DNA of 24,000 nucleotides. It comes from Candidatus Micrarchaeia archaeon (GTDB lineage: Archaea; Micrarchaeota; Micrarchaeia; Micrarchaeales; CABMGC01). A program made the translations under genes and the position numbers. Location: contig JBMFSM010000003.1 of assembly GCA_049967555.1 (NCBI GenBank), positions 1-24,000 on the forward strand, written 5' to 3'. Within the stretch, counting starts at the first letter, position 1, and each line of letters begins with the position of its first letter. Under the pieces are notes generated by a model. The model was not told where the DNA came from. It worked only from the letters and a program-made list of their open reading frames with translations, and did no database searches. Positions 1,904-23,368 of the stretch are shown piece by piece.

Positions 1904-2980
1904 TCAGTTTTTTCTGAGGAAAAACCTCTTTATAATGAGCGAGGGGCTGTCCATATCTCCATACTTCGAGAGGAAATTCTCAATCCCGAGAGTTTTTGTC
2001 GCTGTTGCTAAGAAATCAAGTATGTTGTCGTTAGGGGATGAATATAAATAATGTATGATTCTATGCAACTTCATATCCTTCCCAAACTTTTTTCTCCATT
2101 GTTTTTCATAATTTTCCAAGGGGCTCCCATATTCTAGATATTTGCTAATTGCATCAGAGGCGATAATTGCTGCATTACCGCCAAATATTATTCCTCCGCC
2201 TGTAGAGCTTTTCACCTGGCCTGCAGCATCGCCTACGAGCAGGCTTTTTTTATCGCCATATACAAATCTTTTTCTAAGCGAGATTGGTATTATCCCTCCG
2301 CCCTCGACTAATGGTTTACCCTTTATAAAATTCTTTACCTCTTTCTTTGCCAAAAAATTTTTGTATGCCTCAATCCCTTTTCCATATCTTTCTTCAATCC
2401 CTGCGCCTACTTCCACTTTGTCACCATGAGGGGCTATCCATCCAAAAAAACCTTTCATTATGCTATTGTCAAAGAAAATCTCCACATTATCCATATCTTC
2501 ACGTGCAGTGTACTCTGCTCTAAATGTCAATACATACCTCCTTATAGGGGGAAATTTATAATATCTTGCAACCTGCGAAGCAACGCCCTCTGCTCCAACA
2601 ACTATACCTTTAAGCCTGCTTATTTCGCTCTTTTCAAGCGCATGCGCAAATTCAATATTCGCTCCGTTGCCTACTGCTTCGCCATAAAGTTCTTCTGCTA
2701 AAAGAGTTCTGTCAACCACATAAGCCTGTGGCTTTTTTGAATGTATATGTAGCGATGTTTTGCAGAAATGTATATTAGCGCCATAAAGTTTGTTAAGCAC
2801 GCAATCCTTGTAGTTGATTTTTAAGCTGTCAAGCCCTTTGACAGATAAGATCCCGGAACTCCCATATATCGGCAGAATTTTCTTCTTTCTTTCAAGTATG
2901 TGTACGCCTATCCCTAGCTTTGCAAGCTCCCTTGCCAGTATCAATCCACTGCTACCTGCACCAGCTATTATAATTTTCAT
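1904..2980 (-). CDS. Geranylgeranyl reductase family FAD-dependent oxidoreductase (archaeal lipid/isoprenoid saturation)
   Basis: 358 aa. N-terminal Rossmann motif MKIIIAGAGSSGLILA...ILERK. GGR-type motif LLVGDAAGQVKSSTGGGIIFG. Confidence 0.85.
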   Translation of the reverse strand: MKIIIAGAGSSGLILARELAKLGIGVHILERKKKILPIYGSSGILSVKGLDSLKINYKDCVLNKLYGANIHFCKTSLHIHSKKPQAYVVDRTLLAEELYGEAVGNGANIEFAHALEKSEISRLKGIVVGAEGVASQVARYYKFPPIRRYVLTFRAEYTAREDMDNVEIFFDNSIMKGFFGWIAPHGDKVEVGAGIEERYGKGIEAYKNFLAKKEVKNFIKGKPLVEGGGIIPISLRKRFVYGDKKSLLVGDAAGQVKSSTGGGIIFGGNAAIIASDAISKYLEYGSPLENYEKQWRKKFGKDMKLHRIIHYLYSSPNDNILDFLATATKTLGIENFLSKYGDMDSPSLIIKRFFLRKN

Positions 2981-2985
2981 AAAAT

Positions 2986-3313
2986 CTAATATTTAACATA
3001 GTGAGCGGGAAATCCCACACTCTTTAGAGGCGGAATAAAAGCAAACCATAGAAATTGATGGGCATTTGCTTCATCAGTTGGTGGCCTTGGCACCCTGTTC
3101 CTTTTTTCATTTGGAACAAATGACATCATACTGTTGCCGCTTGGTATGTTCTCAGTTCAGCGAGAACTGCTCCATGGACTTGGGGTCTTACACTCTCTTC
3201 ATGAGTATAGATTCCGGCGTGTCCAGCTGTATAATATAATTTTGTTGAAAAGTATATATGTTTTTTTGTTCCATGTCAATCATATCATTGTTCGCTTGGG
3301 AAGCCCACTCCAT
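2986..3313 (-). pseudogene. Possible frameshifted gene remnant, or a small ORF cluster, directly upstream of the reductase gene
   Basis: GC is about 45% in a stretch with no ORF of 60 aa or more. Three minus-strand frames each carry an open segment. The first is ATG 3313 to stop 3188 (MEWASQANNDMIDMEQKNIY...). The second is a start-less 48-codon frame (..KLYYTAGHAGIYTHEESVRPQVHGAVLAEL..). The third is a 47-aa ORF at 3129..2986 (MMSFVPNEKRNRVPRPPTDEANAHQFLWFAFIPPLKSVGFPAHYVKY) ending 5 nt before the reductase ATG. A T7/A7 homopolymer at 3261-3267 sits where frames 1 and 2 would join. Confidence 0.3.
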
Positions 3314-3405: not shown

Positions 3406-6400
3406 ATGTCTTTGCTTTTGGTAATACTTGAGGCGTTTCTCTCAATTATGGTTCCGGGATTTTTCCTAGCACTTGCTTTGCTAAAGAAGACAGCTCTCTC
3501 AATATTTGAAATTGTAATAATAGGTTTCATATTCGGGTTGATATTTCCACCAACTCTTGTTTGGCTTGAAGGCTACTTGATACCATATATACATTCATTT
3601 TCATTTTCAGAACAGCTTTATAATGCAAACGTGATGCTTCTTACTATAGTCGGAATAGTCCTATGCTTCCAGCAAGGTGTATTTAAAAAGAGCAAAGATA
3701 GCACAGAATTCGAGAGAAAAAAAGAATCAAAAGAAAAGATAAATGAGATAAGGGCAAGAATGAAAAACCTGGGCCTTGGCTTGGAGCTCATAAAAAAACA
3801 CGAAGAAGAAGAAAAAGAGCTTGAAGAAAAGCACAAAGGAGAAGCAGTTGCAATTTCGAGCCTGGGCAGCGTTGAGAAAGAGAAGATTCTCGCGCTTCAC
3901 AGCAAGGAAGAGAAAGAGCTTATAGAAGCACACGAAGCAGAGGAAAGGCTTGTTTTGGACAGGAACAGCCAAGCAAATGAAAAGAAGGAAAGTATAGATT
4001 ACATGTGGTTCTTTTTATTCTTCCTCATGTTGTTAACATTTTTAACAAGGATTGGAAATATAAGTGTAGCCCCGAGATATTTTGAATTTGACCCTTATTT
4101 TGACATGATAAGTACACAATATATACTCACATATGGCTATCAGCTTCTATACGATCATTCAGCATGGCCCACAGTTATAAATGGTACCATACATAGGATT
4201 CAACCTCTTGTCCCTTACTTAGAAGCGTATTGGTATGACATAGCAAATACGCATCCCGTTGCTGCGACAAGCATCGATACCAATCTGTTAAGTTTAGTAA
4301 GCAGCTGGTATCCTCCAATTACTGCAGCACTGCTTGTCTTTGTTGTGTTTTTCTTCCTTTATCACGAATATGGTAAGTTTCCAGCAGTAATAGGCGCAAC
4401 TTTGGCTTCTGCAATGCCTGCACTGGTTACAACATTTATTGCCGGTGAGCAGCTTCTTGAGCCTTGGGGAATATTCGCCATGTTCTTCTTTTATGCAACA
4501 TATCTTGTCGCAATAAAGTACAAAGATTCACGGCTTGCAATACTTGCAGGTATAGCTTATGCTTCAACATTCCTTGGGGCCCATTATTATACTGTAACAG
4601 CGGGTGTTCTTGCAATATATGTAATATTGCAGGGATTCATAAATGTACTTAGAAACAGGGGAATGAAAGATTTTTACAGGATAAATATAATTATCATAAT
4701 AGTTTTTTCCATTTTCTATATCCTTTACATGCCTTATTCAGCAACGCTTACAGAAAGAACACCAGCAGTTGTAGGAATACCTGTAATAATAGCTTTCCCT
4801 CTCTTTGCTCTATTGTTTGTATTCATGCTTGATTACCTATCAAAGAAATTCGGGAAAAAGCTTGAGAAAAACAACCTCCTACTAGTGCTATTTTCTGTGC
4901 TTTCTATAGTGGGTATAGGCATAATAGCCATAGAAGCATTTTCAAAGAGGCTTAAAAAAGATTCGGAAGTTCTTTCTAGATTTAGCATTGCTTCCCTTTT
5001 GTTCTTCATACTCTTTCTACTTATATTATTTACTCCTTTAGGCAAGCCTGTTGACAAGTATATGCAACTTGCTGTTCATTTTACAACGCCATCCATACCT
5101 TTGTTTATGACAGTACAAGAATATGCACCTACTGGATTCAATTTCAATTTCGGATCCGCAGGCTTTGGTATAATAGGTGAGAGCATAGGTGGTGTTGATA
5201 TAATAGTATGGCTTGTCCTAGTATTCTTTACAATATTGGAGATAATCGCAATTTACTATAGAAACTCTACAGCAAGCATACTGGCTCTTTCAGCTGTATG
5301 GCCTTTGGCAATTGCCGGAATGATCGAGGTAAAATATCTGCCACATTTCGGAGTTGGATATATAATAGCAATAGGTTCGATAGTTGGAGAACTTGCCTTG
5401 TACATAAAAAATGGCTCAAGCTTTAAGCCAAAAAATGCCGAAGTAAATCAAAAATCATTGAAAACATTGTATTATTTTGTAGCATTCGTGGCTCTTCTTG
5501 AAGCCTTTACATTTGTGCCTCTTATTTCTGCGATGGCTAATCCAAATTGCTTGAGCATAATCAATAGCAATAATTCTATTGGGTATGATATGTTCTGCAA
5601 TGTAGTGCCTAATTACTGGTTAAATGCGACTGCGTGGATGAAGGCGAACGTGGGGCCTTATGGACCTAGGATTCTTTCATGGTGGGATTATGGTGACTGG
5701 ATCAATTGGTTTGGAAATAGCAATGCCGTGCTTAGAGGAGACAATGCTGTAGCCACATTGGATTATGCCGCTGCAGCTCACCATGTACTCGGGCCTGCGG
5801 ATAATTATGGAGCAAAAGAAATGTCTTATTTCATGAATAAAATCGTTAAAGCAAAATATTTACTCCTTGACGATCAGCTTTTGCCAAAATGGGGTGCGCT
5901 TGATTTCCTCGCTTGCATTAATGTGAACAAAACTAATATGTCATTTGCAGAGAATCAAGGGAAGCTTGTCGGTAGACCTTACCTGGTAGGCACTTCTCAA
6001 TGTGAAATAAATCATGATCCAGTGCACGCCTGGATTCCTAAAATGCCAAATAATATAAATGATTATTGTAATGTAAACTCTTCAGAACCGATGGTGGTTG
6101 CAATATTGTTCGTCGGTGATCAAGAATACATAAATACCACATATTGCGTACCCACAAGTATATATAATTCCCAAAATCCAGTAAACCTATACTCTTCTAA
6201 TGGCACAGAAATAAAAAACGCATATATCGTGCCAATAAGTGAGTTCTACTATGGCAATGTAAATGTTGATAACCGGGTTTGGATAGACTTTGTAGTTTTA
6301 TATACGCCAAATGGGCCAAATTATACAATAACAAATGCACCATCTGAATTCTATAATTCAACATATTATAGAGGTTTCTTCTTGGGCGAACTTCCGGGAT

Positions 6401-6555
6401 TTACGCGTGTATATCCTAAAAACTTTGTAGGGGTAAATTACATAAATTCCACTAATCCAATAGTAATTCTTGCATTAAACAATTATACTGGTGGTTCAGC
6501 GTATGTAACACCCAAGCCAAGTTGGGTACGCAACAATTATTCAATGCCAGGATAA
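3406..6555 (+). CDS. aglB: Archaeal oligosaccharyltransferase AglB (STT3 family) with an atypical N-terminal extension
   Basis: 1049 aa and polytopic. EL1-type acidic motif FEFDPYFD at aa 226-233. Catalytic WWDYG at aa 759-763 (nt 5680-5694). Large C-terminal extracellular domain. Residues 1-198 form extra TM helices plus a Lys/Glu-rich stretch. Confidence 0.9.
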   Translation: MSLLLVILEAFLSIMVPGFFLALALLKKTALSIFEIVIIGFIFGLIFPPTLVWLEGYLIPYIHSFSFSEQLYNANVMLLTIVGIVLCFQQGVFKKSKDSTEFERKKESKEKINEIRARMKNLGLGLELIKKHEEEEKELEEKHKGEAVAISSLGSVEKEKILALHSKEEKELIEAHEAEERLVLDRNSQANEKKESIDYMWFFLFFLMLLTFLTRIGNISVAPRYFEFDPYFDMISTQYILTYGYQLLYDHSAWPTVINGTIHRIQPLVPYLEAYWYDIANTHPVAATSIDTNLLSLVSSWYPPITAALLVFVVFFFLYHEYGKFPAVIGATLASAMPALVTTFIAGEQLLEPWGIFAMFFFYATYLVAIKYKDSRLAILAGIAYASTFLGAHYYTVTAGVLAIYVILQGFINVLRNRGMKDFYRINIIIIIVFSIFYILYMPYSATLTERTPAVVGIPVIIAFPLFALLFVFMLDYLSKKFGKKLEKNNLLLVLFSVLSIVGIGIIAIEAFSKRLKKDSEVLSRFSIASLLFFILFLLILFTPLGKPVDKYMQLAVHFTTPSIPLFMTVQEYAPTGFNFNFGSAGFGIIGESIGGVDIIVWLVLVFFTILEIIAIYYRNSTASILALSAVWPLAIAGMIEVKYLPHFGVGYIIAIGSIVGELALYIKNGSSFKPKNAEVNQKSLKTLYYFVAFVALLEAFTFVPLISAMANPNCLSIINSNNSIGYDMFCNVVPNYWLNATAWMKANVGPYGPRILSWWDYGDWINWFGNSNAVLRGDNAVATLDYAAAAHHVLGPADNYGAKEMSYFMNKIVKAKYLLLDDQLLPKWGALDFLACINVNKTNMSFAENQGKLVGRPYLVGTSQCEINHDPVHAWIPKMPNNINDYCNVNSSEPMVVAILFVGDQEYINTTYCVPTSIYNSQNPVNLYSSNGTEIKNAYIVPISEFYYGNVNVDNRVWIDFVVLYTPNGPNYTITNAPSEFYNSTYYRGFFLGELPGFTRVYPKNFVGVNYINSTNPIVILALNNYTGGSAYVTPKPSWVRNNYSMPG

Positions 6556-6708: not shown

Positions 6709-7836
6709 ATGAAATTATTAATAATCCAACCATACCTTAACCTAAGAGGAGGGGCAGAAAGGGTAATACTCAGCATAGCTAGGCATTATGATGCAAAAAT
6801 ATATACAACAGAATATAACAAGAGGACAACTTTCCAAGAATTTAGAGATTTTGATATAAAGGTTGTTAAAAAACACATACCTTTATCAGACAAGCTCCCA
6901 TACAGAGCCTCACAAGGGCTTAGATATGGGTATACTTTTTACAATCTGGCGCTTAAAGAGGACTATGATTTAATAAATGCCCATATCTCTCCAAGTGAAT
7001 GGATAAGGCATAAGAACAAAAGGGTTTTGTGGTACTGTCATACACCACCAAGAGAGGTTTATGATCTGTATTCTGAGAGAATGAAAAACAGAAATTACAC
7101 TGAAAAATTTGTTTATGCAACTTTCACAAGGGCATACAAATTCATTACAGAAGGCATAATCAAAGAAATAGAAGGTATAGCCACAAATAGCGAAAATACA
7201 GCTTCAAGGATTAAAAAATATTTCAACAGGGATGCCGAAATTATAAATCCTGCGGTAGATTTTGAAAATTTTTCCAACAAGGGAGATGAAAAGTACTTTT
7301 TTTATCCCTCTAGAATTATACCAAACAAGAGGCAGGAGTATGCGATAAATGCATTTAAAAAATTTGAAAAAAAGAAAGAAGGTTATAAGCTCATAATTGC
7401 TGGCACACTTTCAAACGATATCGAGCACATAAAATATTTTGAAAAGCTAAAGAAAATGGCAGATAGCAGGATTGAATTCAAGATCAATATTGGCGATGCC
7501 AAGCTGAAGGAGCTATACGCAGGTTCTACTGCTGTGCTTTTCACAGCAATAAATGAGGATTATGGTTATATTCCGCTGGAAGCCATGGCAAGTTCAAAGC
7601 CAATAATATCAGTAAATGAAGGAGGTCCAAGAGAAACTATAATAAACGGAAAGACGGGTTTCATTACAAATTCAGAAGAGGAGATGGCAGAGAAGATGCT
7701 TTTTGTTGCAGAGCATCCAGATACAGCAGAAAAGATGGGCAAGCTTGGCAGAGAGAATGTAGAAAAAAACTACTCTTGGAATATGTTCTTCAAAAAATTT
7801 GACAGGCTTGCAAATCAAATAGCAAAATCTGATTAG
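6709..7836 (+). CDS. Group 1 (GT4-type) glycosyltransferase
   Basis: 375 aa. C-terminal Glycos_transf_1 signature with EX7E (EDYGYIPLEAMA), followed by KPIISVNEGGPRETI and GKTGF. Adjacent to aglB. Confidence 0.85.
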   Translation: MKLLIIQPYLNLRGGAERVILSIARHYDAKIYTTEYNKRTTFQEFRDFDIKVVKKHIPLSDKLPYRASQGLRYGYTFYNLALKEDYDLINAHISPSEWIRHKNKRVLWYCHTPPREVYDLYSERMKNRNYTEKFVYATFTRAYKFITEGIIKEIEGIATNSENTASRIKKYFNRDAEIINPAVDFENFSNKGDEKYFFYPSRIIPNKRQEYAINAFKKFEKKKEGYKLIIAGTLSNDIEHIKYFEKLKKMADSRIEFKINIGDAKLKELYAGSTAVLFTAINEDYGYIPLEAMASSKPIISVNEGGPRETIINGKTGFITNSEEEMAEKMLFVAEHPDTAEKMGKLGRENVEKNYSWNMFFKKFDRLANQIAKSD

Positions 7837-8138
7837 GACTGAATATCATCAATCACATATTTTGATATTATCTTCGCAGCGTAAGCGAGAACTTTTTTAA
7901 TATCTGCTTCCGTACTTGATCCTGTGCATATGAGTTTGCCATTCTTAAAAAGTATTATCACAGCCTTTGGATCCTTTATCCTAAATATTGCGCCAGGAAA
8001 CTGCTCTGGCTCATAATCAACTTCTTTAACATTTCTAGAGAGATCATAAAGATTTATAGTTGCATGGAAATCAGCACTAACAACTATATTCTGAATCTTT
8101 ATGGCAGGTTTCAGGTTAAGTGTTCGTTTCTGCTCCAT
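7833..8138 (-). CDS. Single-repeat (monopartite) TATA-binding-protein domain protein
   Basis: 101 aa. The stretch IKIQNIVVSADF..NL.....VDYEPEQFPGAIFRIKDPKAVIILFKNGKLICTGSSTEADIKKV matches one TBP repeat, and looks closest to the C-terminal repeat of archaeal TBPs. The upstream 190 bp is about 20% GC, non-coding and holds no second repeat. Its stop overlaps the stop of the convergent GT4 gene. Confidence 0.8.
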   Translation of the reverse strand: MEQKRTLNLKPAIKIQNIVVSADFHATINLYDLSRNVKEVDYEPEQFPGAIFRIKDPKAVIILFKNGKLICTGSSTEADIKKVLAYAAKIISKYVIDDIQS

Positions 8139-8150
8139 ATAAATCTATAT

Positions 8151-8163
8151 TTATTTTTAAATA
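8151..8163 (-). promoter_or_regulatory. Candidate TATA box for the single-repeat TBP gene
   Basis: The minus strand reads CCTTATTTAAAAATAAATATAGATTTAT-ATG. The TTTAAAAATA element is centred about 20-25 nt upstream of the ATG at 8138. Confidence 0.4.
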
Positions 8164-8329
8164 AGGATTTATTAATCTTTGCAATTTTATCTGGCAGTAT
8201 ATTTTACTGAATCAAACGATTGTCTAAACGAAAAATAAATTTCAGTATTCCAACTATCTAAAAATAAACTAATCTTGTATCAAAATGGCTGTATTTCTAG
8301 AATTGAACTATATTAGAGATAATAAGATT

Positions 8330-8707
8330 TCAATCCCTACGATTTTCCTTATAATCTCTTTCTCTGCTTTTCAATTCTTTTATTTTGAGCTCTGCTTTTT
8401 TCTTTAATTCTTTATCTGTGCTTTTGGCAAAAGCCTCTAGAATACTCTCTGGTACATATGGATTATCTATAATTTGTTCATCTATTTTTTTATCATTAAG
8501 CTTAACAAGCTTCTTGAATATTTGCAATGGGGTTTTTTCCCAAGCCGCAAAAGCTAGCAAGCCGACCATATCTTTATCTTTTAATATCTCTTTAAAGGCA
8601 CTGAAAATTTTGTTTTTGCCAATTTTCTTGTAATTTTCATTCAATGTATCTAGCCACATTTCCTTTTCTACTTTGTCAAGTAATAACTTAATATCATCTT
8701 TTGCCAT
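8330..8707 (-). CDS. Hypothetical helical protein, possibly with a HEAT/LRV-like repeat
   Basis: 125-aa ORF, Lys/Glu-rich. The segment IIDNPYVPESILEAFAKSTDKELKKKA resembles leucine-rich-variant/HEAT repeat units. Divergent from the thermosome gene. Confidence 0.55.
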   Translation of the reverse strand: MAKDDIKLLLDKVEKEMWLDTLNENYKKIGKNKIFSAFKEILKDKDMVGLLAFAAWEKTPLQIFKKLVKLNDKKIDEQIIDNPYVPESILEAFAKSTDKELKKKAELKIKELKSRERDYKENRRD

Positions 8708-21421: not shown

Positions 21422-22183
21422 TTATATATAAAAAAATCTTCTCAGATTTTCTGTAGTTGCCTCCGCAATTTTTTCTATGGATATACCTTTTACTTTTGAC
21501 ACTATTATAGCAGAATTTTTAACATCTTTCGGGCTTTTTCCAACTATAGGCGAATCTGTTTCAAGCACGATCGATTTTATATCTGCTTTTTTTATTGTCC
21601 TGTTCCTTTTGTTAGACTCTACAGGAGGTATTGAAATAATATTTTTTCCTAGTTTTTCAACTGATTTTTCATCTCCTTCAAAAAAATGAAACATTGCCCT
21701 TATATTAAACTCTCCCAATATTTGGAAGATATCTTCCAATGCGCCACGTGAATGTATCACAACAGGCAAATCCATATCTTCTGCAATTTCAAGTTGCTTT
21801 ACAAAAACTTCTTTCTCCTTTTCAAAATAAGATTCTGCGCTCGCAATTTTTCTATCGAGCCCTATCTCCCCTATGCCTACAATATTTCTGTTTCCTTTTA
21901 TAATATTTTTAATCTCTTCAAGTCTAAAATTTTCATTTATGTGTTCCGGATCGATGCCTACAACGCCAAAAACGTTTTCCTTGACTATTTTTGATACCTC
22001 TAAATTATCTTTCATACTGGCGCCAGATGCAACAATCAAGTTTACTCCATTAATCCTTGCTTCATCTATTACCTTTTCTGGGTTCTCAAAAAGATTTAAA
22101 TGGCAATGCGCATCACTATATTGTATGTCTAGTTTTTCTAGGTCTATTTTTCTCTCCTGCATAGGGTAAATGCTTTGGTACAT
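21422..22183 (-). CDS. TatD-family metal-dependent hydrolase/DNase
   Basis: HxH motif SDAHCHL near the N-terminus, later GEIGLD, and conserved His/Asp positions (VVIHSR, ETDSP). The start is ATG 22183 or 22162. The first 51 codons of the track ORF (to 22336) are Phe-rich nonsense that overlaps the divergent gene. Confidence 0.8.
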   Translation of the reverse strand: MYQSIYPMQERKIDLEKLDIQYSDAHCHLNLFENPEKVIDEARINGVNLIVASGASMKDNLEVSKIVKENVFGVVGIDPEHINENFRLEEIKNIIKGNRNIVGIGEIGLDRKIASAESYFEKEKEVFVKQLEIAEDMDLPVVIHSRGALEDIFQILGEFNIRAMFHFFEGDEKSVEKLGKNIISIPPVESNKRNRTIKKADIKSIVLETDSPIVGKSPKDVKNSAIIVSKVKGISIEKIAEATTENLRRFFYI

Positions 22184-22252
22184 TACAAACACATAAGATT
22201 TATTAATTAATATATAATAATTTAAGTTAACATTAATAATATATGTGATATT

Positions 22253-23368
22253 ATGGAAAATAGGAAAGAAGAAGCAAAGTTTAAAAAAGAAGATAGCAAA
22301 ATAAACACAGAAAATCCAAAAAAAGTAGAAAAACAAAATCTTATTATCTGGTTTTCACTTGCAATGAGCATAATTGCTATAATGATGGCTGCTTATTCAT
22401 TGCTTCACATACCAAGTTCGCAAGCGCCAGTGACATCATTTCCGTCAAGCCCAGCGGCCAATACAACTCTTTCAAAAATAGTTGTAAATGGTTCTCTTTT
22501 CATTCCTCCAGCAAGCTTGTCAAATGCTCCCATAGTAACTCAAAACCAAAGTTTTGGCTCTAGGCTCACAAACATAAACGAGCCGTTGAATGGATCTGAG
22601 CTTGCAATATTCAATAATGCATCAAATGTTTATTTCGAAAAAGCCGGGATGATGCTACTGAACAATTCTATAAATAATGTTGGCATACAAACATCAGCAT
22701 CTCCTCTTCTTATAGTAAATGGCAAGCCAAGCGTAATATATCTCGGTGCCATCTCATGCTTCTATTGTAGTGAAAACAGATGGGCCATGGGTCTTGCCCT
22801 TGGTCGTTTTGGCAAATTCAATATGCTCTTTAAAGGTTATAGCTCCTTTGGGGATGCAGACTTGCCTACAATATACTGGGCTCCTGCAGAATACAATTCA
22901 ACCAGTGCCGCCGATTTTGGAAACTTCTATAATAGCAACTACATAAACTTCCTATCTATAGAATACGCATCGCAAATCAGGAGTGGTTTTGAGATGCAAC
23001 CGCTTTCATTTTTTGTTGCCAGCGCAAAGACATTAAATAGCACGCCATACTTAGCAGCATTAAACCTTATTTTAAAGCTTAACAACTTCCAAGGCACACC
23101 TTATACAATATGGGGGAGATACGTTTCTGCCGGAGTTGACGCTGTGGATTTGGGCAATATCAATCCAACACAGCCGCCTATCCCTCTTGAGTACATGACA
23201 CACGAGCAGGTTCTTGCGCAGCTTGCTAATCCGAATGATACATTCGCATGGCGCGAATATGCTGCTGCAGATCTATATATAGCAATGACTTGTGCATCAA
23301 TAAATAACACAGCGCCAGTATGTTCTCTGCCAGCAATACAGCAAATCGAAAAAATAAATGGTTATTGA
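22253..23368 (+). CDS. Membrane-anchored exported DUF929-like protein (thioredoxin-like, CxxC), sequon-rich
   Basis: 371 aa. It has a Lys-rich cytoplasmic N-tail, one TM helix (IIWFSLAMSIIAIMMAAYSLL) and a Ser/Pro linker. The block KPSVIYLGAISCFYCSENRWAMGLALGRFGKF then matches the DUF929 hallmark as I remember it (G-A-x-x-C-x-x-C-x-x-x-R-W-A...AL..FG). I count about 10 N-x-S/T sequons by eye. Confidence 0.72.
   Translation: MENRKEEAKFKKEDSKINTENPKKVEKQNLIIWFSLAMSIIAIMMAAYSLLHIPSSQAPVTSFPSSPAANTTLSKIVVNGSLFIPPASLSNAPIVTQNQSFGSRLTNINEPLNGSELAIFNNASNVYFEKAGMMLLNNSINNVGIQTSASPLLIVNGKPSVIYLGAISCFYCSENRWAMGLALGRFGKFNMLFKGYSSFGDADLPTIYWAPAEYNSTSAADFGNFYNSNYINFLSIEYASQIRSGFEMQPLSFFVASAKTLNSTPYLAALNLILKLNNFQGTPYTIWGRYVSAGVDAVDLGNINPTQPPIPLEYMTHEQVLAQLANPNDTFAWREYAAADLYIAMTCASINNTAPVCSLPAIQQIEKINGY

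Follow-up and report, generated by a model that had tools for sequence, protein, structure and literature searches.

Locus and putative promoter of the half-TBP gene

The window (the whole 24-kb stretch of DNA that was analysed) carries a gene for a single TBP repeat, here called the half-TBP or type B, which is placed between an AT-rich spacer and a convergent glycosyltransferase (GT4) gene (Table 1). The encoded protein is an exact match to ACP5RT_00410 from an NCBI MAG of Candidatus Micrarchaeia archaeon. The open reading frame reported in the original prediction is real, but of the interval 7833-8163 given there the last 25 nt (8139-8163) are the beginning of the spacer.

Table 1. Features of the half-TBP locus, in window coordinates.
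Feature	Position	Strand	Description
GT4 glycosyltransferase gene	6709..7836	(+)	Complete, convergent; Pfam Glycos_transf_1 and Glyco_transf_4
Half-TBP (type B) CDS	7833..8138	(-)	ATG start, 101 aa, single TBP repeat
AT-rich non-coding spacer	8139..8329	.	From half-TBP start to next upstream ORF; 21.5% GC
BRE/TATA-like element AAAGATTAATAAAT	8167..8180	(-)	-42 to -29 of the half-TBP ATG; from footprint and motif

The Pfam TBP profile (PF00352) gave a single match on the half-TBP, in which residues 13-94 were aligned to profile positions 2-85 of 85 (E=4.9e-26; score 90.8 bits, cutoff 22.9). According to phmmer comparison with solved archaeal TBPs in the PDB, the half-TBP matches both of their repeats, with full-sequence E-values down to 3.8e-38 and about 40-50% identity to either repeat. 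PF11858 (DUF3378), the TBP-like N-terminal domain of RNase HIII, scored 19.3 bits, below its cutoff of 27, and neither RNase H nor any further domain was found by Pfam, which ruled out the half-TBP as an RNase HIII N-terminal domain. Matches to the NCBIfam TBP models extend over just half of each profile, and the best score of 88.8 bits stays below their cutoffs of 181-347; therefore, most type-B members are named "hypothetical protein" by NCBI, while a TBP name is carried by two members of 137 aa.

As predicted originally, the protein ends after one repeat, since only one Pfam match is present and the stop of the gene overlaps the 3' end of the GT4 gene by 4 bp. This convergent gene lies directly downstream and thus leaves no room for a second repeat; it is kept in every type-B locus examined but L011 and serves as a positional marker of the locus. 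The upstream region had been described as AT-rich and non-coding, which is borne out by the spacer: it contains stops in all three frames, has 21.5% GC against 37% window-wide, and shows no TBP-repeat similarity. In a tblastn search of the half-TBP against six frames of the window, only the gene itself was recovered (E=9e-66; next best E=0.76), so no frameshift hiding a second repeat was detected there.

Within the spacer, AAAGATTAATAAAT is the sole block kept between the window and the relatives L009, L005, and L010, and its flanks are variable. It fits aAAg(a/g)TATAAAAA, a motif that EM recovered from the upstream regions of genes in type-B genomes. Of 115 such regions, 36 contain a site scoring 9 bits or more, compared with 4.5±1.8 in shuffles, although the motif had been trained on the same set. 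The positional base composition upstream of 118 genes revealed a Shine-Dalgarno-like G peak and no sharply positioned TATA, and the promoter evidence is given by the EM motif together with the phylogenetic footprint. Another AT-rich stretch at -22 to -7, which falls within the originally reported interval, was rejected as a promoter element, as it is unconserved in relatives. A TATA-like element had been proposed originally, and a BRE/TATA-like element is indeed present, but the conserved one lies just beyond the interval reported at that time. These motifs suggest that BRE/TATA-type promoters exist in type-B genomes.

Conservation and predicted fold of type B

The type-B family comprises 122 members (about 120 protein clusters) that share at least 65% identity with the window protein and measure 90-144 aa, with the surplus length consisting of Lys/Ala/Pro-rich tails only. 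Between the window and L004, the half-TBP is 91% identical, compared with 90% for thermosome, 81% for L34e, 77% for PolD DP2, and 65% for HisRS; between the window and L001, it is 80% identical, compared with 53% for GT4, 41% for GGR, and 36% for TatD. Judged by these identities, type B is conserved as strongly as the thermosome and is under strong purifying selection.

The half-TBP is not a truncation, because about 120 clusters have the same architecture and usually the same GT4 neighbour. An artefact, be it a frameshift from sequencing or assembly, a pseudogene, or part of a broken two-repeat gene, would not be expected to recur in independent assemblies from NCBI, JGI, ENA, and Logan, and no remnant of a second repeat (tblastn E<0.05, within ±10 kb) was found at any of 26 single-repeat TBP loci of types A and B and other lineages. 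Together with the intact flanking genes, which lack space for a second repeat, and the strong purifying selection, these results refute such an origin; nothing was found in its favour, and its probability is close to nil. The claim of a stand-alone one-repeat TBP rather than a frameshifted two-repeat gene was therefore confirmed. N-terminal extensions of L019, L024, L027, and L032 were considered as degenerate repeats and rejected (hmmsearch E>=0.16 or no match), and L044 was rejected as a single-repeat TBP because the contig ends within what is a two-repeat gene. By sequence comparison, the window ORF is a functional one-repeat TBP gene and represents a paralogue specific to the Micrarchaeia/Micrarchaeales lineage (DPANN).

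Among 51 aligned type-B members, F47 and F64 show no variation, and conservation is at least 90% for N17 and T72. V19, I70, and the stirrup residues Y42-I51 are either invariant or conserved at this level, with Y42-E43-P44-E45-Q46-F47-P48-G49 invariant, and R53 is retained in at least 70% of the family. The residues N17, V19, F47, R53, F64, I70, and T72 are taken here to be the counterparts of yeast TBP N159, V161, F190, R196, F207, V213, and T215. The EYEPEQFPG stirrup is identical to the C-terminal stirrup of the TBPs of P. woesei, M. jannaschii, and S. acidocaldarius. Going by this alignment, type B has retained the Phe pair that kinks DNA, the Asn/Thr of the groove, and the stirrup to which TFB binds. 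The BRE/TATA-like motifs lend indirect support to a putative role of the half-TBP in TATA binding and bending and in recruitment of TFB and RNA polymerase.

The AlphaFold monomer model of the half-TBP (pLDDT 87) was placed by Foldseek on one repeat of solved TBPs with a probability of 1.00 and an rmsd of 0.9-1.2 Å over 80-84 residues; its TM is 0.79 when query-normalised and about 0.45 when target-normalised, and all solved TBPs matched in this search have two repeats. Two tandem repeats in one chain define canonical TBP, and in the half-TBP only one Pfam stretch is present. Central strand S1 covers only residues 18-23 in the monomer model, compared with 11 residues in a two-repeat relative. 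This relative, P0273 (196 aa), was used as a proxy for a symmetric half-TBP dimer, as its repeats are 87% identical in protein and 82% in DNA; its predicted structure is a canonical saddle (pLDDT 90.5; TM against solved TBPs 0.83-0.92). According to these models, a two-subunit saddle built from half-TBPs is plausible.

Type A and the two-repeat relatives

A second family of single-repeat TBPs, type A, is about 50% identical to type B. In two related genomes, type A occupies a slot with the order rpl21e, TBP, and VTT-Pelota. On contig logan:SRR23961934_10529 (336,861 bp), type A (2837-3163) lies next to L21e, and type B is found near 149 kb, where the surroundings are syntenic with the window. 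One MAG encodes ACREBF_00560 (type B), ACREBF_03310 (L21e), and ACREBF_03315 (type A). A search for a canonical TBP elsewhere in the genome had been proposed in the original prediction; a second TBP gene was found in the related genomes, but it is this paralogous half-TBP and not a two-repeat one.

In other Micrarchaeota and in Iainarchaeota, a two-repeat TBP adjoins rpl21e, in L006 within the same rpl21e-VTT slot. The DUF655-RpoF-L21e cluster adjoins two-repeat TBPs in L006, L007, L025, L026, L028-L030, L033, L037, and L055, and, as a whole or in part, single-repeat TBPs in L008, L020, L022-L024, L032, L035, L068, and L089-L097. On the other side of the single-repeat TBP, VTT is present in L020, L023, L024 (about 27 bp from the TBP match), L032, and L089-L096, mostly followed by Pelota. 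In all rpl21e loci examined from Micrarchaeota and Iainarchaeota, except L035, a TBP gene is adjacent to rpl21e or lies within a few hundred bases. The window MAG encodes L21e ACP5RT_01905, whose closest relatives (83% identical) have type A adjacent in four of four loci. Type A thus stands beside rpl21e in the two related genomes, and we infer the same arrangement for the window's own genome. When metagenomes were scanned for the type-A motif EQFPGAICKI, 43 contigs were recovered, mostly short and all single-repeat, with type B on none of them. Type-A and type-B locus-tag prefixes from the same studies do not overlap except for ACREBF, among the few prefixes visible.

The presence of type A bears on the main idea of the original prediction, in which type B would be the sole TBP of the window genome and an obligate homodimer. 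Such a role would agree with the extreme conservation of type B, with the lack of a second TBP repeat in the 24-kb window, and with the finding that no genome had two TBP loci among the best 80 loci of the 600 pattern matches listed, a sample with low power for detecting co-occurrence. However, type A occurs in two related genomes that have a syntenic type-B locus, in one of them on the same contig, and the window MAG has the rpl21e gene that is TBP-flanked in the loci described above. A sole-TBP homodimer is accordingly regarded as very improbable.

Among known systems, the half-TBPs are most closely related to near-symmetric two-repeat TBPs of Micrarchaeota and Iainarchaeota such as P0273, which share with them the FPGAI and LFKNGK signatures and the Lys-rich tails, and differ in that the repeats are covalently linked and 44-91% identical to each other. 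The identity between N- and C-terminal repeats has a median of 67% (range 44-91%) in 118 Micrarchaeota-like two-repeat TBPs, compared with a median of 37% in 143 other TBPs, and a gene-conversion-like tract with nearly identical DNA between repeats is present in the near-symmetric ones. The two-repeat TBPs nearest to the half-TBP are at most 48-53% identical to it. In a tree with modest support (59-74% NJ bootstrap over 88 columns), the half-TBP falls within Micrarchaeota TBP repeats with type-A halves closest, and both repeats of P0271-P0274 cluster with half-TBPs.

A relic of the ancestral state, as suggested originally, was dropped because the half-TBP nests inside the Micrarchaeota TBP radiation; on this placement, it is a secondary reduction. 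Profile scores for N-like against C-like repeats are a weak test: with Micrarchaeota-specific N/C profiles, type A scored +3.2 bits and type B +6.9 (true N -7.3, true C +12.7), and with general archaeal profiles, for which true N gave -14 and true C +12, the values were near neutral, -3.8 and +1.0. An origin of the two types by splitting of a two-repeat TBP gene into N and C halves was rejected, because both types lean C-like by the Micrarchaeota profiles and type B groups with type-A halves in the tree.

Previous work described monopartite TBP-domain proteins of Thermococcales with about 90-100 aa and a single TBP-fold domain, whose sequences depart significantly from TBP and make up a cluster of their own, and which occur alongside a normal TBP (Brindefalk et al. 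2013, PMC3597702). The half-TBP resembles them in size and in its single stand-alone domain; by the description of that family it is set apart, being a bona fide TBP repeat from DPANN with a sister type at the TBP locus. The single TBP domain of halobacterial TbpA, as summarised in the same study, groups with genuine TBP repeats; TbpA homologues closely resemble the full-length TBPs of their own species and were reported to be non-essential extra copies (PMC3597702). TbpA and the half-TBP are both single-domain proteins close to genuine TBP repeats; unlike TbpA, the half-TBPs are deeply conserved across their clade; their nearest two-repeat TBPs are the distant ones noted above, and a full-length partner was not seen at the loci examined. 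Within the literature searched, no account of a single-repeat TBP in Micrarchaeota or DPANN was found.

A putative saddle from separately encoded halves

Compared with canonical archaeal TBP (PF00352, PRK00394 models), the half-TBP has the same repeat fold, Phe pair, Asn/Thr, and EYEPEQFPG stirrup, and its sister type A shares the chromosomal slot of canonical TBP in related genomes. Canonical TBP has two repeats per chain, whereas the half-TBP has one, and two paralogous half genes appear in one genome. As a lone repeat makes only half a saddle, the TBP fold implies that completing the ten-stranded DNA-binding saddle requires another repeat acting in trans. Since related genomes have a second half-size TBP in the slot of the two-repeat gene, the TATA-binding saddle is probably assembled by dimerisation of separately encoded repeats.

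The paralogous type A at the TBP locus of related genomes, on the same contig as a type-B gene, makes an A·B heterodimer at least as likely as a homodimer. We favour A·B as the main species, a reading held tentatively and at slightly less than even chance. The two types evolve at the same slow rate (about 82% identity for either one between the two clades compared), their central strand S1 is nearly the same (NIVASADL vs NIVVSADL), and their EYEPEQFPG stirrups are identical. An A·B saddle would bind BRE/TATA promoters such as AAAGATTAATAAAT upstream of the type-B gene, with each subunit inserting its own Phe pair into the DNA. Because both subunits have the same stirrup, TFB could dock on either side of the saddle, and the direction of transcription would be set by the TFB-BRE contact, the contact known to give orientation in archaea, as stated in a review (PMC7289017). 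B2 and A2 homodimers may coexist with A·B; by the features compared here, namely the identical stirrups and the weak N/C profile scores, A·B and B2 look alike.

Multiple TBP paralogues are present in haloarchaea. By analogy, a B2 homodimer might serve some of the promoters as an alternative general factor, alongside a housekeeping A2 homodimer. All DNA-contact and TFB-contact motifs are kept in type B, which has a separate locus and its own promoter-like element, and a normal saddle was predicted for the near-identical repeats of P0273. In addition, a homodimer may suffice, since single-repeat TBPs stand at the TBP locus in several lineages in which no type B was seen. On the other hand, cross-pairing is the default after duplication of a homodimer, and S1 barely differs between the two types; type B is conserved like type A, whereas specialised paralogues usually evolve faster; and the apparent absence of type B from "A-only" genomes applies only among the 600 matches listed. 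Separate B2 and A2 factors thus appear rather unlikely, though still worth considering. The homodimer saddle of the original prediction holds up to the extent that a two-subunit saddle is plausible from the model fit and P0273, with A·B being at least as likely; the alternative TATA binder stays possible on the same terms.

Type B could also be a regulator that caps type A or titrates TFB via its stirrup. A lone repeat leaves its dimer edge free and its TFB-binding stirrup exposed, and a competing binder had been suggested originally. However, a decoy could do without the DNA-intercalating Phe pair and the groove Asn/Thr, which are invariant or near-invariant in the family, and type B is as conserved as core housekeeping proteins. 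A competitor or decoy is therefore considered improbable.

With regard to the origin of the favoured A·B saddle, a highly symmetric, gene-converted two-repeat TBP may have collapsed to a single repeat, and duplication of the one-repeat gene, whose product at first worked as a homodimer, would then have given rise to A and B. A sister lineage appears to have re-duplicated a half gene in tandem, giving a new two-repeat TBP. The complete scenario, in which the whole Micrarchaeales clade has no two-repeat TBP and uses an A·B saddle reached by collapse, homodimer, and duplication, with the sister lineage re-fused, is possible but somewhat doubtful.

TBP is the textbook pseudo-symmetric protein and is thought to have arisen from a homodimer by duplication and fusion. 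If the scenario is true, extant genomes would show homodimer, heterodimer, and re-fused stages of this duplication-fusion model. Because most members score below TBP model cutoffs, presence/absence surveys may miscount TBP in DPANN. Type A, type B, and the putatively re-fused forms, with repeats up to 91% identical, provide natural material close to bona fide TBP. A lineage that initiates transcription with stand-alone repeats would allow testing of whether a symmetric or trans-assembled saddle binds TATA DNA, how TFB picks a side, and what purpose the N/C asymmetry of ordinary TBP serves.

The half-TBP gene and its putative promoter

The window protein, identical to ACP5RT_00410 of an NCBI Candidatus Micrarchaeia archaeon MAG, consists of one TBP repeat, as the original prediction had read it, with a single match to the Pfam TBP profile PF00352 (residues 13-94 against profile positions 2-85 of 85, E=4.9e-26). 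Among PDB sequences (phmmer), it aligns with either repeat of solved archaeal TBPs, scoring 66.6/65.2 bits against the two repeats of S. acidocaldarius TBP, and 51.6 (N repeat) and 71.2 bits (C repeat) against P. woesei TBP. That the protein ends after one repeat was borne out as well: beyond the self-match (E=9e-66), tblastn of the half-TBP against the whole window found nothing better than E=0.76, and the convergent GT4 gene overlaps its stop codon. Pfam annotation revealed no second TBP among the 20 other long ORFs of the window, which are ordinary archaeal housekeeping genes, including HisRS, thermosome, L34e, PolD DP1, PolD DP2, and aminotransferase. The AT-rich, non-coding upstream region also stood, whereas the strand and the promoter position needed correction (see the table). 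The ORF beyond this spacer has no Pfam or NCBIfam match and is not kept at this position, where relatives carry a Laminin_G_3 gene or two 212-aa ORFs.

Features of the half-TBP locus and of a contig carrying both half-TBP types
Feature	Sequence	Position	Strand	Remarks
GT4 glycosyltransferase gene	window	6709-7836	+	complete, convergent; its end overlaps half-TBP stop codon by 4 bp
Half-TBP ORF	window	7833-8138	minus	101 aa, ATG start
Spacer 5' of half-TBP	window	8139-8329		21.5% GC; stops in every frame
BRE/TATA-like element AAAGATTAATAAAT	window	8167-8180 (-42 to -29 of half-TBP)	minus	conserved in relatives
Next upstream ORF	window	8330-8707	minus	125 aa, Lys/Glu-rich, apparently helical; directly upstream of half-TBP
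Type A half-TBP	Logan contig SRR23961934_10529 (336,861 bp)	2837-3163		beside L21e
Type B half-TBP (P0516)	SRR23961934_10529	149,071-149,397		same 90% cluster as protein P0037

The block (A/C)AAAG-ATTAATAAA is the only upstream one common to the window and the related loci L009/L005 and L010. An EM search of 115 upstream regions from genomes with this half-TBP family yielded the motif aAAg(a/g)TATAAAAA, similar to a combined archaeal BRE and TATA box. Sites scoring 9 bits or more were present in 36 of the 115 regions in sense and 22 in antisense orientation, against 4.5±1.8 in shuffles, an excess that is inflated because these regions also served to train the motif. No Shine-Dalgarno sequence precedes the half-TBP ATG, and the transcript would have a very short leader.

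Elsewhere in the window, a 1049-aa polytopic membrane protein (3406-6555, plus strand) has no family match beyond a faint one of the STT3/AglB type (TIGR04154, 34 bits versus a cutoff of 450). Most close relatives have its gene beside GT4, and the two genes are possibly a divergent oligosaccharyltransferase locus. The 5' ends of a TatD-like ORF (21422-22336, minus) and a DUF929 ORF (22253-23368, plus), as listed, overlap by ~84 bp, and at least one of them probably starts further downstream.

A conserved family and its paralogue at the TBP locus

Searching with the window protein gave 366 hits, the best 120 of which are all clusters of 90-144 aa with 70-91% identity to it; 122 family members (type B) reach at least 65%, and the extra length of the longer ones is confined to Lys/Ala/Pro-rich tails. 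The half-TBP convergent with GT4, with variable upstream neighbours, recurs in independent assemblies (among them contigs of 940,636 bp and 285 kb, others from JGI and ENA, and the 336,861-bp Logan contig), and among the type-B loci examined the GT4 neighbour is missing at L011 alone. Between the window and locus L004, identity amounts to 91% for the half-TBP, 90% for thermosome, 81% for L34e, 77% for PolD DP2, and 65% for HisRS; against locus L001 it is 80% for the half-TBP, versus 36-53% for the neighbours. No second-repeat remnant was detected within ±10 kb at 26 single-repeat loci (tblastn E<0.05). Truncation of a two-repeat gene is ruled out by the recurrent one-repeat family, the independent assemblies, and the lack of a remnant at these loci, and that the single repeat is an artefact has next to no probability.

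The window half-TBP scores ~89 bits with NCBIfam TBP models, whose cutoffs start at 181 bits, and most family members are accordingly named "hypothetical protein" by NCBI; two 137-aa members carry a TBP name. Many archaeal TBPs have an acidic C-terminal tail. Basic Lys/Ala/Pro-rich tails are frequent in half-TBPs (many family members, e.g., P0020, P0042, P0054) and in Micrarchaeota two-repeat TBPs, and that of the half-TBP at locus L027 (10001-10252) contains AKKKAVKKKPAAKKK three times over; the window protein lacks such a tail. Locus L019 (JAVYSI010000001.1), titled Methanothrix sp., carries a type-B half-TBP in Micrarchaeales GT4 synteny and is probably a misbinned contig, and Marsarchaeota or Aquilonibacter is the label on several further type-B MAGs.

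A search for a canonical TBP beyond the window led to a second half-TBP, type A, a paralogous one-repeat gene that occupies the TBP locus of related genomes. In the window and at the half-TBP loci examined, no two-repeat TBP accompanies the half gene; in a genome scan covering 600 pattern matches, no genome has two TBP loci among the best 80, a sample too thin to say much on co-occurrence. In Micrarchaeota and Iainarchaeota, the TBP gene adjoins a DUF655-RpoF-L21e cluster. Two-repeat TBPs lie beside it at L006, L007, L025, L026, L028-L030, L033, L037, and L055, and single-repeat TBPs beside all or part of it at L008, L020, L022-L024, L032, L035, L068, and L089-L097. On the opposite flank of the single-repeat gene is VTT (L020, L023, L024, L032, L089-L096), ~27 bp from the TBP match at L024, followed by Pelota in most; the two-repeat locus L006 matches this VTT-Pelota layout with one extra gene. 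The L21e-adjacent halves share the type-A consensus FKVENIVASADLG.DLDLYGIAKAS.DVDYEPEQFPGAICKI..PK.ALLLFKNGKIICTGAKTEADIRRAI, and type A was found on 43 further metagenome contigs, as a single repeat every time.

Both types coexist. On contig SRR23961934_10529, type B is flanked as in the window, with thermosome, AAA kinase, EMC3, and L34e on one side and GT4, the large membrane protein, GGR, MJ0538, and HisRS on the other, and one NCBI MAG holds ACREBF_00560 (type B), ACREBF_03310 (L21e), and ACREBF_03315 (type A). The L21e of the window's own MAG is ACP5RT_01905, and type A is adjacent in all four loci examined for its closest relatives (83% identical), so the window's genome very probably encodes type A too. 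Type B as the sole TBP is improbable.

Origin of the half-TBPs

Types A and B are ~50% identical. With Micrarchaeota-specific N/C profiles, A scores +3.2 and B +6.9 bits (true N repeats -7.3, true C repeats +12.7); both lean slightly C-like, and fission of a two-repeat TBP into N and C halves is rejected on this ground. The pair looks like a duplication of an already single-repeat gene. P0151 (127 aa, 2-kb ENA contig) is a mosaic, type-B-like in its N-terminal half IKIQNIVVSADLHAVIDLYALSKEVKAVD and type-A-like in its C-terminal half CKIHEPKTALLLFKNGKIICTGAKTEADIRKAIDQVVKIVKDY, which reflects either recombination between A and B or a chimeric assembly.

An exhaustive representative search returned 4831 TBP relatives; of the best 150, all but five contain several repeats and share no more than 48% identity with the window protein. 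Closest among the multi-repeat proteins come TBPs of the Micrarchaeota/Iainarchaeota type, in which FPGAI and LFKNGK occur in each of the two repeats. In 118 of these, identity between the N and C repeats is 44-91% (median 67%), versus 26-62% (median 37%) in 143 other TBPs, the 118 being ranked by summed similarity to a half-TBP, which favours symmetric proteins. The repeats of the two-repeat P0273 (L006:10001-10591) are 82% identical in DNA, with a central tract of ~40 codons almost free of synonymous differences, a pattern suggestive of gene conversion within the gene. The protein is modelled as a canonical saddle (pLDDT 90.5, TM 0.83-0.92).

In NJ repeat trees (88 columns, modest support), ordinary TBPs split largely into N and C groups, while Micrarchaeota-type repeats cluster by lineage. 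Type B (71-95% bootstrap) shares a 36-member clade (59%) with further one-repeat TBPs, and both repeats of P0271-P0274 nest there beside the L024 half-TBP (74%). Placed among Micrarchaeota-type repeats, the half-TBPs are derived, contrary to the earlier suggestion of a relic of the ancestral state, and the P0271-type genes look, with moderate support, like a re-duplicated half gene. Iainarchaeum-like and other Micrarchaeota genomes contain additional single-repeat TBP genes (L031, L027, L035, L068), some adjoining the RpoF-DUF655(-L21e) cluster, and collapse to one repeat seems to have occurred repeatedly in this part of DPANN. P0121 (272 aa, 1.5-kb ENA contig) has three repeats, the first two nearly identical, reflecting either repeat expansion or an assembly artefact.

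Structure and proposed pairing of the half-TBPs

The AlphaFold2 model of the window protein (51-sequence alignment, pLDDT 87) superposes on one repeat of solved TBPs with rmsd 0.9-1.2 Å over 80-84 residues (Foldseek; TM 0.79 query-normalised, ~0.45 target-normalised). Invariant or nearly so in the family are N17, V19, F47, F64, I70, T72, and the stirrup Y42-E-P-E-Q-F-P-G-A-I51, and R53 is kept in at least 70% of members. From TBP-DNA and TBP-TFB/TFIIB structures, we take N17/T72 to be the minor-groove Asn/Thr, F47 and F64 the two intercalating Phe, and Y42-I51 the TFB-binding stirrup. Because all of these are present, each subunit would form a complete half-site; a full saddle requires a second repeat. 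Sequence comparison establishes a conserved one-repeat TBP that has every motif predicted to contact DNA and TFB and whose gene has a BRE/TATA-like promoter, and a decoy role for type B is quite unlikely.

Brindefalk et al. 2013 (PMC3597702) described two kinds of monopartite TBP-domain protein, a halobacterial TbpA-type copy that closely resembles the full TBPs of its own species and a diverged Thermococcales group alongside a normal TBP. Unlike these, the Micrarchaeia halves are genuine TBP repeats with deep conservation throughout a DPANN clade, and comprise two paralogues, one in the two-repeat gene's own locus. Our literature search found no paper on such half-TBPs, which is not proof that none exists.

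Two repeats would pair via the edges of the central strand S1 into a ten-stranded saddle on TATA boxes. S1 covers only residues 18-23 in the monomer model and 11 residues in that of P0273, which fits a strand needing a partner. We tentatively favour a heterodimer of A and B, since cross-pairing is the default for paralogues of a homodimer, S1 is almost the same in the two types, and A and B evolve equally slowly (each ~82% identity between the same two clades). A type-B homodimer acting as a separate alternative factor is the main rival, and a less likely one. Types A and B carry the same stirrup, so that TFB could dock on either side of the saddle. In archaea, TFB-BRE contact fixes direction (PMC7289017), and the same contact would set the direction of transcription here.
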